Source: Candidatus Omnitrophota bacterium (GTDB taxonomy: Bacteria; Omnitrophota; Gorgyraeia; DAOVKU01). From it: a DNA stretch of 61,346 nucleotides. The position numbers and the translations under genes were made by a program. Of the stretch, positions 16,978-59,172 are shown in pieces. Each line of letters begins with the position of its first letter. Position 1 is the stretch's first letter. The notes beneath the pieces were generated by a model. The model was not told the origin of the DNA. It searched no databases and saw nothing but the letters and a program-made list of their open reading frames with translations. The stretch lies in contig JBDRBQ010000067.1 of the NCBI GenBank assembly GCA_043822625.1, forward strand, positions 1 through 61,346, read 5' to 3'.

Positions 16978-17052
16978 GCCCCCGTAGTTCAACGGATAGA
17001 GCGCTAGCCTCCGAAGCTAGATGTGCAGGTTCGATTCCTGCCGGGGGCACCA
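16978..17052 (+). tRNA. tRNA-Arg (anticodon CCG), CCA encoded
   Basis: Hand-folded cloverleaf. Acceptor GCCCCCG/CGGGGGC, D stem GTTC/GAGC, anticodon stem CTAGC/GCTAG with loop CTCCGAA, T stem GCAGG/CCTGC with loop TTCGATT, discriminator A, then CCA. Confidence 0.9.
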
Positions 17053-17204
17053 AAGGAATCGAACCTAAAAGGGGATTTTAAGGGGAAAGATAGTTTCCCC
17101 TTATCGGCGCACTGGGACTTCCTGCGGAAGAAAGGAAAATATTAAAAGGAAAACCCGCCTACCGGCAGGCAGGCATCAGGTTTTCCTTTTAAAGAGCGAA
17201 GCGA

Positions 17205-17523: not shown

Positions 17524-18369
17524 ATGCTGGCAAAAAGAATAATTCCATGTTTGGACGTAAATAAAGGCAGGGTCGTTAAGGGAATAAAATTCCTTAATCT
17601 GAAAGACGCCGGAGATCCTGTTGACGCGGCTATCGCTTATGATAAAGCAGGTGCCGATGAATTGGTTTTTCTCGACATTACCGCCTCAAGTGAGAAAAGA
17701 AATATTATGCTTGAAGTAGTTACAAAAGTAGCCGAGCAAATATTTATCCCTTTTACCGTTGGCGGCGGCATAAGAACTATCGAAGATATCAGAAGATTGC
17801 TTACAGCAGGCTGTGATAAGGTTTCCATGAATACCGCCTGCGTGAAAAATCCTGATTTAATTAAGAATTCTTCAGCGCGCTTCGGAAGCCAGTGTATAGT
17901 GGTGGCTATTGACGCGAAGCTTCAAATCCCTCCGGTGGTGGAAAAGGGGACTCCCTCCTTTATTAAAGGAGGGCAGGGGAGGATTTCTCTTAAGAAAAAG
18001 CAGGCGATTAAAACTGATAAAATTTGGGAAGTTTTTATCCACGGCGGACGCACCCCTACAGGCATAGACGCGGTCTGGTGGGCAAAGAAAGCGGCGGAAC
18101 TCGGAGCCGGAGAAATTCTTTTAACCAGCATGGATTTTGACGGTACTGAAGCAGGTTACGACATAGAACTTACTAAAAAAGTCTCAGAAGCCGTTAATAT
18201 TCCGGTAATCGCTTCCGGAGGTGCGGGTAAACCAAAACATCTTTACGACGTATTAACCGGCGGAAAAGCAGACGCCGCGTTGTGCGCGTCTATCTTTCAT
18301 TATAAGAAACATACTGTGGCGGAAGTAAAAAAATATCTCAAAAGAAAAGGAGTTGTGGTAAGATTATGA
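17524..18369 (+). CDS. hisF: imidazole glycerol phosphate synthase, cyclase subunit, with an internal insertion
   Basis: [23 protein letters not shown] and LLTSMD.DGT..GYD motifs. At 281 aa it is about 30 aa longer than I recall for typical HisF, because of an insert after AIDAK. Confidence 0.95.
17924..17986. repeat. 63-bp palindromic element (AAATCCCC...GGGGATTT family) inside the hisF reading frame
   Basis: Ends AAATCCCTCC (17924-17933) and GGGGAGGATTT (17976-17986). Internal perfect palindrome CCCTCCTTT-ATT-AAAGGAGGG at 17953-17973. The architecture matches the intergenic copies at 23057-23147 and 48512-48551. Confidence 0.7.
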
Positions 18370-23056: not shown

Positions 23057-23147
23057 AAAATCTCCCCTCCCCCCCACATATGCCTCTTTAAAAAAGAGGG
23101 GGATATTAAAATTTCCCCCTTTGTAAAGGGGGACTAAGGGGGATTTT
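23057..23147. repeat. AAATCCCC...GGGGATTT-family palindromic element(s)
   Basis: AAAATCTCCCCTCCCCCCC ... CCTCTTTAAAAAAGAGGG ... TTCCCCCTTTGTAAAGGGGGA CTAAGGGGGATTTT, in the trpD-trpC spacer. Confidence 0.75.
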
Positions 23148-35251: not shown

Positions 35252-35350
35252 ATAGTTTATGGTTTAATGGTGAATGGTAGGGGCCAATGCCTGCCTGCCT
35301 GCCTGCCTGCCTGCCATATAATTTTGGTAGGCGGGCCTGCCGGTAGGCAA
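35252..35350. repeat. heptamer run, (GCCT)n microsatellite and GTAGG-headed palindromes
   Basis: ATAGTTTATGGTTTAATGGTGAATGGTAG at 35252-35280, GCCTGCCTGCCTGCCTGCCTGCC at 35289-35311, then GGTAGGCGGGCCTGCCGGTAGGCAAGG at 35322-35348. Confidence 0.8.
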
Positions 35351-41238: not shown

Positions 41239-41522
41239 AAATATTGTCCTTTCCCCAACAATTTTAAAATTATTATAATTTTAGAAACAGTACCTGTAAA
41301 AATCATCCGACTAACTATATCGTAATTATTTTTTTCTATTTTATACAATATCGAAGCATATATTTCCATTTGAATTCTATTTTACATGTAAGCCATAGTA
41401 AATCAAGACAAAAATCAGTAACCATTCCAATTATAGATAATCCTTGCTTAAAGGGCATGTTTTTCTTATAATAAAACAATACATGTTTGGGTAAAAAAAG
41501 CAGTTCTATCGATATAAAAAAT

Positions 41523-43487
41523 ATGAAAAAATTCACTCTTACGACAAACCTGAAACCCGGCGGCGACCAGCCCCAAGCTATCAAAAAATTAAGAGAAGGT
41601 TATGAAAAGGGACAAAATTTTCAAACACTTTTGGGCGTTACCGGTAGTGGGAAAACTTTTACCATAGCTAATTTTTTAGACGGTATGAGCCGTCCGGTTC
41701 TGGTTATTTCTCATAATAAAACGCTTGCCGCCCAGCTTTACAGCGAATTTAAAGACTTTTTCCCACATAACGCTGTTGAATACTTTGTGAGTTACTACGA
41801 TTATTATCAGCCGGAAGCTTACATCCCGCAAACCGATACTTACATCGAGAAGGACGCTTCTATAAACGAACAGCTTGACCGGTTGAGACTTTCCACCACT
41901 TCATCTTTAATATCACGTCAAGATACAATTGTAGTAGCCAGCGTTTCCTGCATTTATAATTTGGGTTCGCCCGAAGAATATCAGCAATTGCTTCTGAACG
42001 CCCAGCGCGGTCAAAAGATAAAAAGAAATGATTTGGCGCGCCGTTTAGTCGATATTCTTTATGAAAGAAATGATGTCTCTTTTACAAGGGGAACTTTTAG
42101 AATCCGCGGGGATGTCGTGGATATTTTTCCTTCTTACAGCGAACAGGCGTTACGAATCGAATTTTTCGGAGAAGCGATAGAAAATATATACAAAATAAAT
42201 CCGGTTACATTAAAAAAAATAGAAGAACTGGATAAAGTCGTGCTTTACCCTGCAAAACATTTTCTAATAGATAAAAACAGGGTAGAAACAGCTCTTAAAT
42301 CAATCGAATGGGAACTGGAAGACAGGCTAAAGGACTTAAACAGTAAAAATAAATTACTGGAGGCACAACGGCTTGAATCGAGAACACGGTATGATATGGA
42401 AATGTTAAAAACCGTCGGATACTGCCACGGCATTGAAAATTATTCGCGGCATCTGTCGAGTAGGCCGGACAGTTCAAGGCCTTATTGTCTTTTGGATTAT
42501 TTCCCCGAAGAATTTATTACCGTAATAGATGAATCTCACGTTACCATTCCACAGATAAGAGGGATGTACGCGGGCGATAAGGCACGCAAAGAAGTGCTCG
42601 TGGAACACGGCTTCAGACTGCCGTCATGTTTAGATAACCGCCCGTTGAAATTCGATGAATTTAAAAAAGTTCTGAAAGAAACAATTTTCGTTTCGGCGAC
42701 ACCAGCGGATTATGAACTGCGTTTAAGCGGCAAACCCATAGAACAGATTGTCCGGCCCACGGGATTGCTTGATCCTGAGATAGAAATCCGTCCGACGGAA
42801 AATCAGATAGACGATATTATAGAACAGGTTCAGGAAAGAGCAAATAAAGAAGAACGGGTATTAATTACGACTTTGACAAAAAAAATGGCCGAAGACTTAA
42901 CCGCTTATCTGAAGGAAATAGGACTTAAAGTAAGATACTTGCATTCGGAAATAGACACCCTTGAGAGAGTGGCTATCCTCAAAAGTCTACGGAAAAAAGA
43001 GTTTGATTGTTTGGTAGGCATTAATTTATTAAGAGAAGGTATAGATTTGCCGGAAGTATCTCTGGTATGCATGCTGGACGCGGATAAAGCCGGTTTTTTA
43101 CGCTCTTATACTTCGCTTATTCAGATAACCGGCAGGTGCGCGCGCAATGTCAACGCTAAAGTAATTATGTACGCGGATAAAATTACAGAAGCTATGGCCA
43201 TGACCATAAAAGAAACCGAACGGCGGCGTAAAATTCAGGTTGAATATAATAAGAAGCACAACATAAAACCGGCTACCATCAAAAAAGCTATTCGTGAAGG
43301 CATTGAAATGCACCTGGATTCTAAAAAACTTTTACTGAAATTTTCGGGACAGTCTGAAGATGAGTATGAACTCAATAATCTAATATCGCATCTTCAGAGA
43401 GAAATGGAAATAGCCGCAAAAAAAATGGAATTCGAAAAAGCGGCTGAATTAAGAGACCGGATAAAGGAACTATCGCGTCATAAATAA
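41523..43487 (+). CDS. uvrB: excinuclease ABC subunit B
   Basis: GDQP.AI, GVTGSGKTFT Walker A, the beta-hairpin region YYDYYQPEAY, DESH, and the C-terminal UVR motif. The listed TTG 41487 start is probably too far upstream; ATG 41523 gives MKKFTL. Confidence 0.97.
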   Translation: MKKFTLTTNLKPGGDQPQAIKKLREGYEKGQNFQTLLGVTGSGKTFTIANFLDGMSRPVLVISHNKTLAAQLYSEFKDFFPHNAVEYFVSYYDYYQPEAYIPQTDTYIEKDASINEQLDRLRLSTTSSLISRQDTIVVASVSCIYNLGSPEEYQQLLLNAQRGQKIKRNDLARRLVDILYERNDVSFTRGTFRIRGDVVDIFPSYSEQALRIEFFGEAIENIYKINPVTLKKIEELDKVVLYPAKHFLIDKNRVETALKSIEWELEDRLKDLNSKNKLLEAQRLESRTRYDMEMLKTVGYCHGIENYSRHLSSRPDSSRPYCLLDYFPEEFITVIDESHVTIPQIRGMYAGDKARKEVLVEHGFRLPSCLDNRPLKFDEFKKVLKETIFVSATPADYELRLSGKPIEQIVRPTGLLDPEIEIRPTENQIDDIIEQVQERANKEERVLITTLTKKMAEDLTAYLKEIGLKVRYLHSEIDTLERVAILKSLRKKEFDCLVGINLLREGIDLPEVSLVCMLDADKAGFLRSYTSLIQITGRCARNVNAKVIMYADKITEAMAMTIKETERRRKIQVEYNKKHNIKPATIKKAIREGIEMHLDSKKLLLKFSGQSEDEYELNNLISHLQREMEIAAKKMEFEKAAELRDRIKELSRHK

Positions 43488-43723
43488 CCGGCAATTTCCC
43501 TTTTTGGAAAAGAAGTACTATGGATCCAAGCAATTTCCCCACTTTGAAAAAGGGCAAAGTAACCAAGTAACTTCCCCACTTTGAAAAAGGGGCAAAGTAA
43601 CCAAGCAATTCCCCACTTTGAGAAGGGGCAAAAGTCCAAGCAATTCCCCCACTTTGAAAAGGGGCAAAAGTCCAAGCAATTCCCCCACTTTGAAAAAGGG
43701 GGGATAGGGGGGATTTATTATAA
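43488..43723. repeat. tandem array of about 36-bp units (one degenerate plus 5) ending GGGGGGATAGGGGGGATTTATTATAA
   Basis: Unit CCAAGCAATTCCCCCACTTTGAGAAGGGGCAAAAGT. Units start at 43526, 43563, 43601, 43636 and 43672. Confidence 0.9.
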
Positions 43724-44104
43724 TATGTTAAAATATAAATCTACTTTAAAACATAATGCGCGTCGATTACGAAAGGAAATGACAGATAGTGAAAAAAAAC
43801 TATGGTCAAGATTACGTGGTAAACAAATCATGGCTATTCAGTTTTATCGACAAAAACCCATAGGTCCTTATATTGTAGATTTTTATGCCCCTACGGCAAA
43901 GATTGTTGTAGAAGTGGATGGTTCGCAACACATGGAAGAAAGAGCGGAGCAAAAAGATATGCAACGAGATGATTACTTGAAGGATCAAAATTTATTTATA
44001 TTGCGCTTCAATAATTTACAAGTTTTACAAGAGTTGGATTCTGTAGTTGAAGTGATTTATCAAACAGTAAAAGAAAGGATGTAAATAAAAAACAAATCCC
44101 CCCC
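43707..44104 (+). mobile_element. candidate one-gene cassette: DUF559 ORF bounded by inverted GGGGGGATTT / AAATCCCCCCC
   Basis: GGGGGGATTT at 43707-43716 and AAATCCCCCCC at 44094-44104 are reverse complements. The cassette sits between two co-linear copies of the same repeat array. Confidence 0.4.
43725..44084 (+). CDS. DUF559 (Vsr-like PD-(D/E)xK) endonuclease-domain protein
   Basis: ARRLRKEMTDSEKKLW.RLR, FYRQKPIGPYIVDFY and KIVVEVDGSQH match the DUF559 pattern. The ORF is also open in frame upstream through the repeat array to 43581. Confidence 0.8.
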   Translation: MLKYKSTLKHNARRLRKEMTDSEKKLWSRLRGKQIMAIQFYRQKPIGPYIVDFYAPTAKIVVEVDGSQHMEERAEQKDMQRDDYLKDQNLFILRFNNLQVLQELDSVVEVIYQTVKERM

Positions 44105-44144
44105 TGCATGCTAAAGGCATGGTCCGCCGCAGGAGGAGCCAGGC

Positions 44145-44438
44145 TTCATCCCCCTTTTTCAATAGAGGTCCAAGTAACTTCCCCACTTTGAAAAAGGGGC
44201 AAAGTAACCAAGCAATTCCCCACTTTGAGAAGGGGCAAAAGTCCAAGCAATTCCCCCACTTTGAGAAGGGGCAAAAGTCCAAGCAATTCCCCCACTTTGA
44301 GAAGGGGCAAAAGTCCAAGCAATTCCCCCACTTTGAAAAAGGGCAAAAGTCCAAGCAATTCCCCCACTTTGAAAAAGGGCAAAAGTCCAAGCAATTCCCC
44401 CACTTTGAAAAAGGGGGGATAGGGGGGATTTATTATAA
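44145..44438. repeat. second tandem array of the same about 36-bp unit (one degenerate plus 7) with the identical terminal unit
   Basis: Units start at 44170, 44208, 44243, 44279, 44315, 44351 and 44387. The order of unit variants matches the upstream array. Confidence 0.9.
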
Positions 44439-44447
44439 GGTAAAACA

Positions 44448-45428
44448 ATGCAAAACATAGACGATAAAATTATTTCGATATTAAAAGAAAACAAAGATAC
44501 CTACGTTTCGGGAGAAGAACTGAGCCGTATTTTAGGTATATCGAGAGCGGGGATATGGAAACACATCCGCAAAATTAAAGAACACAAATACGGAATTACA
44601 GCTTCCCCTCATTTAGGATACAGATTAACCGGTATCCCCGACAGCATGATTCCGGCCGAGATTAAATATAAACTCGATACCTCTGTCATCGGCAATGAAA
44701 TTTATTCATATCAGGTTCTCGATTCGACCAACGATACCGCCGAAAAATTGGCCATTGAAGGCGCGAAGGAAGGAGTAGTGGTTTTTGCCGAAAACCAACA
44801 AAAAGGCAGAGGCAGGCAAAATAGAAAATGGATTTCGCCCGATAAAAAAGGCATTTACATGTCGGTGATTTTAAGACCTGCTTTGCCGCCGTCGGCAGTA
44901 TCCAAAATTACACTTATATCTTCATTAGCCGTCCTTAACGCCATAAGAAGAATTTCTTCACTGCCTGTTTTGATTAAATGGCCGAACGACATTATCATCA
45001 ACAATAAAAAAGTATGCGGCATACTGACCGAAACTACGGCCCAGCCGGATATTGTAAAGTTTATCATTATAGGCATAGGTATAAATGTGAACACACCAAA
45101 AGAACTTTTGCCGGAAAACGCGACTTCTCTTTTCGAAGAATCGGGGAAGAGTATAAACAGAATTTCTCTTACGCGGGAGATATTAAAAGAACTTGAAAAA
45201 TACTATTTTTTATTTAAAAAAGATGGTATAAAAACTATAATTAACGAATGGCGGGATTTTTCGGCAACCCTGGGTAACAGAGTAAAAATAAACGGTTTAA
45301 ATAATGTTTACGAAGGACAGGCGCTGGCTATCGATGAAGATACCGGCAATTTAATCATTCGCGAAGACAGCGGTTTTACGCGCGCTGTTTCTTCAGGAGA
45401 CGTGGAAATTTTAAAAAAGGAGCCCTAA
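44448..45428 (+). CDS. birA: bifunctional biotin-[acetyl-CoA-carboxylase] ligase / transcriptional repressor
   Basis: N-terminal HTH (SGEELSR.LGISRAGIWKHI), ligase motif QQKGRGRQNRKW and KWPNDI. Confidence 0.9.
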   Translation: MQNIDDKIISILKENKDTYVSGEELSRILGISRAGIWKHIRKIKEHKYGITASPHLGYRLTGIPDSMIPAEIKYKLDTSVIGNEIYSYQVLDSTNDTAEKLAIEGAKEGVVVFAENQQKGRGRQNRKWISPDKKGIYMSVILRPALPPSAVSKITLISSLAVLNAIRRISSLPVLIKWPNDIIINNKKVCGILTETTAQPDIVKFIIIGIGINVNTPKELLPENATSLFEESGKSINRISLTREILKELEKYYFLFKKDGIKTIINEWRDFSATLGNRVKINGLNNVYEGQALAIDEDTGNLIIREDSGFTRAVSSGDVEILKKEP

Positions 45429-48511: not shown

Positions 48512-48551
48512 AAATTTTTCCCCTTTGCAAAAGGGGGATTAATGGGGATTT
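48512..48551. repeat. AAATCCCC...GGGGATTT-family palindromic element
   Basis: AAATTTTTCCCCTTTGCAAAAGGGGGATTAATGGGGATTT. Confidence 0.75.
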
Positions 48552-49685: not shown

Positions 49686-50005
49686 CCCCCTCCCCCTTTG
49701 CGGGAGAGAGCAGGGGTGAGGCAATTAACTAACTTCCTTGTTCCCCATCTTCCCATCGTGGCAAAGAGTTGGGCCTGTCCCGCCGTAATGCGGGAGTGAG
49801 GCGTTAACACAGAGTTCCTTGTTCCCCATCTTCCCATCGTGGCAAAGAGTTGGGCCTGTCCCGCCGTAGTGCGGGAGTGAGGCAATTAACTAACTTCCTT
49901 GTTCCCCCTCGCCCTTTATGGGAGAGGGTTGGGGTGAGGCAATTAACTAACTTCCTTATTCCCCCTCGCCCTTTATGGGAGAGGGTTGGGGTGAGGGTTA
50001 TAATC
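49686..50005. repeat. array of 5 hairpin-containing units (57-81 bp) ending GGGGTGAGGGTTATAAT
   Basis: Units start at 49686, 49743, 49824, 49904 and 49961. Units 2 and 3 are near-identical 81-bp copies. The shared linker is GTGAGGCAATTAACTAACTTCCTTGTT. Palindromes of the type CCCTCGCCC-TTTAT-GGGAGAGGG are present. Confidence 0.88.
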
Positions 50006-50436: not shown

Positions 50437-50544
50437 CCCTGCCCGCATTATTTCCCATCTACCATTGTGGGGTGAGGCGTTAACACAGTTCCTTGTTCCC
50501 CCTCTCCACTTGAGGGAGAGGGCGGGGGTGAGGGGTATTATAAT
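50437..50544. repeat. two further units of the same hairpin-repeat family, ending GGGGTGAGGGGTATTATAAT
   Basis: CCCATCTACCATTGTGGGGTGAGGCGTTAACACAGTTCCTTGTT then CCCCCTCTCCACTTGAGGGAGAGGGCGGGGGTGAGGGG. Confidence 0.85.
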
Positions 50545-58916: not shown

Positions 58917-59172
58917 CAGTGAATAGTAGATGGTGAATGGTGAATAGTAGTTTTAAAAGCTTTTACGATTAACCATTAAACTGTTTTTCAACTATTCACC
59001 ATCGAACCATTAAACTATTGAACCATTAAACTGTTTTTCAACTATTCACCATCGAACCATTAAACTATTGAACCATTAAACTGTTTTTCAACTATTCACC
59101 ATTGAACCATTAAACTATTGAACCATTAAACTGTTTTTCAACTATTCACCATTGAACCATTAAACCATTCAC
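58917..59172. repeat. forward heptamer run followed by a 50-bp tandem repeat (4 copies) of reverse-arm sequence
   Basis: CAGTGAATAGTAGATGGTGAATGGTGAATAGTAG at 58917-58950. Unit CCATTAAACTGTTTTTCAACTATTCACCATCGAACCATTAAACTATTGAA starts at 58973, 59023, 59073 and 59123. Confidence 0.9.

Follow-up and report, generated by a model that had tools for sequence, protein, structure and literature searches.

How a single small nuclease gene came to lie between two matching tandem arrays in the spacer between uvrB and birA is the question raised by contig JBDRBQ010000067.1 of a Candidatus Omnitrophota bacterium (assembly GCA_043822625.1), of which we analysed a stretch of 61,346 nt on the forward strand (referred to here as the window). 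The spacer (positions 43488–44438) holds two co-linear arrays of a 35–38-bp unit on either side of a 119-codon DUF559 gene, and on balance we think it probable that it is an inserted copy of a widespread selfish mobile cassette in which a nuclease and a mirror-repeat site depend on one another. An initial annotation of this DNA had suggested that DUF559 is tied to the repeat family much as the RAYT proteins are tied to repetitive extragenic palindromic (REP) sequences, and this is largely supported by the flanks of homologous genes, by gene-less copies and by distant versions of the same arrangement (L-numbers in what follows are labels of loci compared with the window cassette).

The spacer was recognised as an insertion by comparison with relatives in which the locus is empty. 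The nearest BirA relatives are 66–68% identical and the gene order nadC-uvrB-birA-coaX-groES-groEL is kept, and because uvrB and birA overlap by 17–20 nt in three syntenic relatives (L082, L083 and L085), with no spacer and no array, the entire ~960 bp including the arrays is an insertion. UvrB in these relatives ends in …KELxxYAxNR*, and in the window the C-terminus and stop codon of uvrB are new, supplied by the left edge of the insert. It had been proposed that the gene entered an array already in place and duplicated its target there, and that related genomes might have an empty spacer with a single array; the empty site in these relatives is without any array and therefore the gene did not enter an older array at this place. 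A further locus, L084 (GCA_030631665.1), has a Y1_Tnp (IS200/IS605-type) gene and a zinc-finger open reading frame (ORF) in the uvrB/birA junction (476–1682, upstream of birA), and keeps just the last ~35 codons of uvrB beside a short GTGTCCCCTAATTTATGT direct repeat.

The gene and a hairpin motif were found to go together across phyla. The first clue was that mis-called extensions of homologues encoding SPFEKGGYGDLF and NPPSPLFQRGK are the translated form of a C-run/G-run palindrome. A scan using one genome per species gave 372 relatives, of which the best 80 were taken (55–85% identity), and the flanks were counted for 75 homologues (55–87% identity) with enough flanking sequence by looking for the motif (C5-7TTT-NNN-AAAG5-7, a 1–5-nt linker, then G5-7ATTT) within 130 nt of the gene. 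It is present on at least one side in 71 of the 75 (upstream in 58, downstream as the reverse complement in 57, and on both sides as inverted repeats in 44), compared with 49 of the 2812 windows of 130 nt that we used as background. The check proposed in the initial annotation, to see whether other DUF559 genes have these flanks, therefore comes out in favour of its central idea. A generic triplex-motif detector, written to a published definition and finding the terminal units of both window arrays (T1 and T2) and the E. coli motif TMECO alike, placed a motif within 250 nt of the gene in 76 of 77 window-family loci, with a density of 5.3 per kb near the gene versus 0.20 per kb elsewhere. The hosts, according to the labels of their metagenome-assembled genomes (MAGs), are Omnitrophota, Clostridia, Planctomycetia, Nitrospinota, Desulfobacterota, Beta- and Gammaproteobacteria, Chloroflexota, bacteria of the candidate phyla radiation (CPR) and two archaeal groups.

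The motif is also better conserved than the synonymous sites of the gene it accompanies. Run lengths, the TTT/AAA of the stem and the final ATTT are near-invariant across the homologues, and the C5-7 / G5-7 / G5-7 runs with a 1–5-nt linker are seen in 57 upstream and 49 downstream copies, including comparisons in which the motif stays almost unchanged while the synonymous divergence (dS) of the gene ranges from 0.5 to >1 (synonymous sites saturated). The asymmetric loop is inverted as well (GAA upstream versus TTC downstream), so the ~34-bp flanks are true inverted repeats. At L019 the two arms have a mirrored linker of 22 nt, apart from one base, but the idea that the linker always co-varies between arms was abandoned as it holds in just eight of 44 loci. 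The second G-run lies 7–32 nt from the start codon in most loci (full range 7–81 nt), and the inner repeats are close to the gene (3–30 nt in most loci). Direct repeats of at least 40 bp occur on both sides of the gene in 18 of 68 loci, and tandem repeats with a period of at least 20 adjoin some 17 of 86 gene copies, nearly all of them made of hairpin units with differing spacers. The layout of arrays or direct repeats on both sides recurs in independent assemblies (L012, L011, L069, L074, L020, L064 and L080); it is intact at the Omnitrophota locus L012, where the gene lies between two copies of a block consisting of AAATCCCCC-TAA-hairpin, a 35-bp array and hairpin-CGA-GGGGGGATTT, and L011 resembles L012 with an additional gene-less junction.

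Within the window the arrays bear out the initial annotation in being co-linear and sharing an identical terminal unit. Tandem Repeats Finder (TRF) gives 36-bp periods with 4.8 and 6.9 copies. When split at CCAAG, array 1 consists of a 38-nt degenerate segment (43488–43525) and units from 43526, 43563, 43601, 43636 and 43672, and the units of array 2 begin at 44170, 44208, 44243, 44279, 44315, 44351 and 44387. The core CCCCACTTTGARAARGGG occurs 12 times in the window, always within the arrays, and not once in shuffled sequences. Because a 73-bp block is shared at 100% (43563–43635 and 44170–44242), the terminal 52-bp units are identical (43672–43723 and 44387–44438) and the final ~150 nt align nearly perfectly, the arrays are duplicates of one array, as had been claimed. 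They differ in one extra leading unit in array 1 and in extra GAGAAGGGG and GAAAAAGGG units in array 2. A strong hairpin is found only in the terminal unit (T1 folds as a 10-bp hairpin, −7.7 kcal/mol), while the internal units have a truncated right arm and fold weakly (−2.9 kcal/mol, on par with shuffles). The arrays had been described as each beginning with a degenerate unit, and the degenerate start is real, but it is a degenerate inverted hairpin copy (43491–43511, and CCCCCTTTTTCAA at 44150–44162) and not a repeat unit.

Array 2 with its ends (44094–44431) forms a unit bounded by AAATCCCC… and …GGGGATTT, and array 1 has a decayed version of that left end; by position and layout, this decayed end seems to correspond to the intact AAATCCCCC-TAA-CCCCCTTTTTCAAAGGGGGG that opens the upstream array of L012. 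Each array with its ends is thus a gene-less, palindrome-bounded companion element in the order C-tail and hairpin, amplified half-hairpins, hairpin and G-tail, and the locus reads as element-gene-element, with arrays that are not independent satellites. By eye, the window units and those of L001 seem to be related although the loci differ, so the arrays may travel with the gene.

The gene between the companion elements encodes an active-looking enzyme, judging from its conserved catalytic residues, its selection and its predicted fold. PF04480 matches with E = 2.7e-35 over 106 of 109 profile positions, NCBIfam PRK09767 (YcjD) matches with E = 3e-23, which is under the equivalog cut-off, and PDB gives a match to 3HRL, a Neisseria DUF559 protein (E = 6e-18). 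An AlphaFold model (pLDDT 87) was matched by Foldseek to 3HRL with a TM-score of 0.90 on the target, to the I-Bth0305I catalytic domain 3R3P with 0.74 (E ~1e-3), and weakly to E. coli Vsr 1VSR (E = 0.35). D52, E63, D65 and H69 are kept in at least 95% of the 75 homologues, and the gene is under purifying selection (dN/dS 0.10–0.15). This 119-aa nuclease (PF04480, not PF01797) is the sole ORF of the cassette, which has no transposase gene. The initial annotation had also noted an array frame open into DUF559 and proposed an array-encoded N-terminal extension; the frame is indeed open, but this is uninformative because all six frames are open through the stop-free repeats and the homologues start at the ATG, and the extension itself is contradicted by the 75 homologues, which start at the same M-L-K-Y and have upstream DNA that differs except for the motif.

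Two statements about the immediate flanks of the gene were confirmed, namely that the ATG comes one base after the …TATTATAA of the terminal unit and that the ORF is bounded by inverted repeats (GGGGGGATTTATT at 43707–43719 and AACAAATCCCCCC at 44091–44103, with the inverted pair GGGGGGATTT / AAATCCCCCC). The right-hand repeat is stretched, with the tail AAATCCCCCCC (44094–44104) split from an inverted hairpin remnant CCCCCTTTTTCAATAGAGG (44150–44168) by a 45-nt linker (44105–44149) just before array 2; its intact counterpart, AAATCCCCCC-NNN-CCCCCCTTTTTCAAAGGGGGG, is the form found downstream in 57 of 75 homologues. Long linkers also occur at L019 and L049, and as both are GC-rich hairpin inserts at the linker position, the linker may be a favoured insertion point. 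The window linker holds a small hairpin of its own (CTGCATGC-TAAAG-GCATG…GCAG).

Copies of the motif without a gene are found in the window and beyond. The hairpin, G-run and ATTT recur at 23113–23144, at 48518–48550 and within hisF (17925–17986), so that the link which the initial annotation drew from the array tail to these three places holds for the motif, but not for the exact GGGGGGATTT string, which is confined to three places in the window, all at the cassette locus. In hisF (17524–18369) the copy is part of an in-frame insertion of ~30 codons (17920–18024), a palindromic triplex-type element AAATCCCTCC…CCCTCCTTTATTAAAGGAGGG-CAG-GGGAGGATTT, and HisF residues 133–167 replace five residues of solved HisF structures. 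Among the loci fetched for comparison there are gene-less motif pairs with tails inward and 12–26-bp spacers, as well as gene-less full palindromes, one with a 23-bp perfect stem. Nine convincing triplex-type motifs were noted in the window (at 17952, 23113, 43683, 44398, 48518, 49688, 49906, 49963 and 50498); all are on the + strand, like nearly all window genes, which suggests an orientation bias with respect to transcription or replication. No second DUF559 copy or remnant was found in the window, including near the array at 49.7 kb. The coordinates of the cassette, its neighbours and the gene-less copies are collected in Table 1.

Table 1. Position and structure of the cassette parts, the adjoining genes and gene-less copies in the window.
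Feature	Position	Strand	Description
uvrB	41487..43487	+	From the ORF list; last codons (…SRHK*) and stop in left edge of insertion
M1 left end (companion element), degenerate	43477..43525	+	AAATAACCGG…TTTCCCTTTTTGGAAAAG, inverted hairpin with tail, both decayed; belongs to repeat family D2
Array 1, four internal units of 35–38 bp	43526..43671	+	Left arm, loop, truncated right arm, spacer
Terminal unit T1, left inverted repeat of the gene	43672..43723	+	Motif CCCCCACTTTGAAAAAGGGGGG-ATA-GGGGGGATTT at 43683–43716, then ATTATAA
DUF559 nuclease gene (Vsr-fold PD-(D/E)xK), 119 aa	43725..44084	+	Pfam PF04480
Right inverted repeat, also left end of companion element M2	44091..44168	+	Inverted repeats I1, I3, I5, I6
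Array 2, six internal units, co-linear with array 1	44170..44386	+	
Terminal unit T2, identical to T1	44387..44438	+	Motif 44398–44431; ends 9 nt before birA start codon
birA	44448..45428	+	Pfam PF08279, PF03099, PF02237; homologues named biotin ligase
Gene-less companion element, trpD-trpC spacer	23057..23147	+	AAAATCTCCCC…two hairpins…GGGGGACTAAGGGGGATTTT; outer arms pair, two inner hairpins form
Solo left-type motif downstream of groEL	48518..48551	+	CCCCTTTGCAAAAGGGGG-ATTAAT-GGGGATTT
Gene-less variant motif (CCCTCC/GGAGGG/GGGAGG), in frame inside hisF	17925..17986	+	

Evidence of mobility comes from the deltaproteobacterial MAG MFD10007.bin.3.145, which has ten near-identical copies of a 505-bp DUF559 cassette (L051, L054, L056, L057, L060, L061, L062, L076, L077 and L079; 87% mean column identity in an alignment that includes unrelated flanks). 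All ten carry an additional outer 19-bp inverted repeat, GGGCATAGGCGCTAACTTA, and each interrupts a separate CCCTCCCCC-N5-GGGGGAGGG hairpin at its loop, the 5 bp of which are duplicated. Insertion into a hairpin loop with loop duplication was also considered for the window-type copies and rejected, as the downstream loop TTC is the inverse of the upstream GAA and not a direct copy. In public assemblies the exact window DUF559 gene is not on record; a first metagenome scan for the window-specific repeat unit gave zero matches, a second, looser metagenome scan returned unrelated gene-less pairs only, and scans of viral contigs using two distant DUF559 proteins and a mixed alignment as queries gave nothing usable.

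The form of the motif connects it with a known class of repeats. Holder et al. 2015 (PMC4666352) defined 'intrastrand triplex motifs', which are intergenic, multi-copy sequences of many phyla that mark unstable loci, and reported neither a mobility gene near them nor a function common to their flanks. In E. coli the motif, TMECO (BoxC or PIT), is CCCTCGCCCC-loop-GGGGAGAGGG-TTA-GGGTGAGGGG, with 23 copies in K-12 and a presence in >260 genomes, and its triplex, shown in vitro for single strands alone, was not found in vivo (PMC4666352). The window motif is a 9-bp-stem hairpin (C6TTT / AAAG6) followed by a 1–5-nt linker, a second G6 run and ATTT, which mirrors the AAA of the stem, and among the 31 informative distinct motifs of the loci compared, 27 have a third run that is a mirror copy of the purine arm and the other four a direct copy. 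By the order of its runs and this mirrored third run, it belongs to the BoxC/PIT/TM 'potential intrastrand triplex' class. It shares with BoxC/TMECO a pyrimidine run, a loop, a purine run, a short linker (often TTA) and a mirrored second purine run, and the E. coli BoxC at 164547–164631, with two motifs, tails inward and a 16-bp spacer, resembles the gene-less pairs of the window family; it differs in its sequence (C6TTT…AAAG6…G6ATTT), in flanking a gene and in ending tandem arrays. We found no link of DUF559 or YcjD to BoxC/PIT/triplex repeats in the literature searched, including PMC4666352, while one survey lists DUF559 among gene families enriched beside inverted repeats. Elsewhere in the window, and in a genome of 39% GC from the Omnitrophota, there is a tandem array at 49688–49997 with periods of 81 and 57 bp; the end of its units, CCCTCGCCCTTTATGGGAGAGGGTTGGGGTGAGG, is nearly the E. 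coli BoxC/TMECO sequence, and a related motif lies at 50498–50530.

More distant DUF559 genes (37–44% identical) have triplex-type motifs of their own beside them in Deinococcus, Sphingomonas, Pseudanabaena, Azospirillum, Photobacterium, Synechocystis, Neisseria and at E. coli ycjD. Such a motif was found in six of the eight loci fetched with controls, and in most of six further loci read by eye, and the version of the motif changes with the lineage of the gene. The Deinococcus, Sphingomonas, Pseudanabaena, Azospirillum and Photobacterium genes sit inside operons; L100, L103 and L105 (Sphingomonas and Deinococcus) have DUF559 in the conserved operons yqeY-dnaG-rpoD, paaD-paaZ and hpa genes, and the triplex motifs around them are particular to the lineage and in many cases form direct repeats of a motif pair on both sides. 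E. coli has a single DUF559 gene, ycjD. In strain KE47 the complement of TMECO forms the last codons at its 3' end, and in K-12 TMECO number 9 lies ~170 bp downstream; the sapF-fabI region (L086 5041–5840, L098 and L087) also shows a partial duplicate of the ycjD 3' end, followed by TMECO number 9. Most of the ycjD stretch is missing from ~2000 of 5426 complete E. coli genomes, and the ends of an insertion were sought by this route without success, the alternative allele being the eefRABCD island and not a clean empty site. One of these genomes, O157 AR-0429, has TetR regulator and RND-pump adaptor genes upstream of fabI, consistent with the eefRABCD island that has been described in place of ycjD (PMC12817139).

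Taken as a selfish cassette, the locus would most likely work as follows. The nuclease would recognise the motif on either side of its gene, whether through the sequence or through a hairpin or triplex extruded from it, and nick or cut there; repair of the break by recombination with other copies would then carry gene and motif to new copies in a homing-like manner, and the same repair, through unequal or slipped synthesis, would amplify, contract and duplicate half-hairpin units. Both the arrays and their duplication across the gene would be by-products of break repair or slippage at the motif. We infer the binding and cutting of the motif, as well as the part played by cutting in spread and in array growth. 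A wider proposal, which we put forward tentatively and consider possible but doubtful, is that DUF559 nucleases are the missing protein partners of the BoxC/PIT/triplex repeats of bacteria and some archaea, each lineage cutting its own mirror-repeat hairpin, perhaps when folded, with cassettes and gene-less derivatives (E. coli BoxC among them) spreading and causing local instability through nuclease-plus-host-repair, which is neither transposition nor intron homing.

Several points weigh against the cassette being self-mobile in this way. We know of no means by which a 119-aa PD-(D/E)xK nuclease would transfer strands, and the outer 19-bp repeat of the deltaproteobacterial copies may be that of an ordinary transposon mobilised by a different enzyme. 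No target-site duplication was found at the outer hairpin edges in 43 window-type copies, and as close genomes yielded no exact pair with and without the insert, the boundaries of the mobile unit are provisional; elements with the hairpin outside and with the tail outside are also indistinguishable because the motif is palindromic. The window has one DUF559 gene only, and as many of the source genomes are MAGs, some of them may carry the wrong taxon name.

The main rival is that these are palindrome-bounded elements akin to miniature inverted-repeat transposable elements (MITEs), moved in trans by an unrelated transposase or recombinase, with DUF559 as cargo trapped between two of them, as in a mobile insertion cassette, that maybe has a repair or defence role. 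This would suit the deltaproteobacterial copies, where the outer repeat and clean 5-bp target duplication are DDE-transposon-like, as well as the composite-transposon look of element-gene-element, the insertion of gene-less copies alone, as in hisF, and the weak matches of DUF559 to defence-system profiles. Random cargo, however, would not be paired with the motif at so many loci across phyla, nor would the motif track the DUF559 lineage. The inner repeats abut the gene closely, and there is also no transposase among the called genes of L001–L003 (the other cassette neighbourhoods were not screened for one). We therefore regard this explanation as unlikely.

Less likely again is a purely cis-regulatory role, with the hairpin and G-run as expression signals of DUF559 (an operator, a ribosome-binding region or insulating terminators) and the arrays as replication slippage with no part in mobility. 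The usual place of the second G-run shortly before the start codon would allow GGGGGG to act in a Shine-Dalgarno-like way, and hairpins on both sides could insulate a gene inserted in operons, but the full range of spacing is too variable for a ribosome-binding site, and the gene-less, hisF-internal and inverted downstream copies have nothing to regulate. Neither a terminator-like site nor a convincing promoter was predicted at the locus, the sole match in a search of Rfam was due to chance, and signals read by the host would have diverged between hosts as different as Omnitrophota at 39% GC and GC-rich proteobacteria and archaea. Such a regulatory-only role fits the data poorly, and so does an assembly artefact or one-off local duplication, which we find scarcely credible since, although tandem repeats are classic sites of assembly error and the second array could be mis-assembled or without general meaning given the near-identity over ~150 nt, the arrays differ in unit number and left ends and the layout recurs in independent assemblies.

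Compared with known systems, the selfish cassette that we favour resembles REP/REPIN-RAYT, in which one small gene of nuclease type lies between palindromes of its own, gene-less copies lie elsewhere in the genome and the repeat differs between lineages of the gene. RAYT enzymes are of the HUH/Y1 type (PF01797), act on single-stranded hairpins and are usually single-copy and vertically inherited, whereas DUF559 has the Vsr/PD-(D/E)xK fold, can be multi-copy (ten or more in one MAG) and looks horizontally mobile, and the window-family repeats differ from REP in having a third, mirror run. With the Vsr-fold (EDxHD) homing endonuclease I-Bth0305I and with free-standing homing endonuclease genes it would have in common the catalytic fold and the position of a selfish gene amid a (pseudo)palindromic site, but the DUF559 gene is outside any intron or intein, has no extra DNA-binding domain, and has flanking half-sites that are dispersed repeats and not unique gene sequence. 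MITEs, mobile insertion cassettes and IS1397 also have terminal inverted repeats (here ~34 bp, in the 44 loci with both) and short gene-less derivatives, and the deltaproteobacterial copies are similar to IS1397 in targeting hairpin loops with a short duplication; unlike insertion sequences (IS) and MITEs, the cassette has no DDE, serine or tyrosine transposase, and window-type copies have no target duplication. The in-frame insertion in hisF recalls the Rickettsia palindromic element. E. coli Vsr is of the same superfamily and has the same catalytic core, but the similarity is weak and no T:G mismatch context is implied, and no cytosine methyltransferase gene was noticed alongside (none was searched for). 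The arrays are not CRISPR, as the units abut without spacers and there are no cas genes, the neighbours being uvrB, birA and coaX, and the locus is not an integron cassette, as there is no integrase and no attC GTTRRRY cores were seen on reading the sequence.

Three other features of the window were noted in passing. A tRNA-like 3' end (…GGTTCGATTCCTGCCGGGGGCACCA, by reading) at 17012–17070 comes just before GGGGATTTTAAGGGGAAAGATAGTTTCCCCTTA, a G-run plus hairpin in the arrangement opposite to that of the cassette motif, and a 50-bp tandem repeat at 58971–59169 (four copies, 98% identical) and a (TGCC)7 microsatellite at 35288–35315 both seem unrelated to the cassette.

BoxC/PIT/triplex repeats, catalogued since the 1990s, abound in many bacteria, among them enterobacteria, cyanobacteria and Neisseria. 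No enzyme or means of spread was known for them, and the 2015 survey states that it found none. Few domains of unknown function are as common in prokaryotes as DUF559. The repeat-nuclease partnership suggested by these comparisons may be of the REP-RAYT kind, with the link of DUF559 to BoxC-class motifs as the new part. If true, the partnership would give a function to both, would place beside REP/RAYT a second system of that kind with another enzyme fold, and would explain small nuclease genes in housekeeping operons as well as BoxC-class motifs at unstable loci. A nuclease that reads hairpin or triplex structure could be a useful reagent, and the finding offers a testable answer to the origin of the BoxC/triplex repeats.

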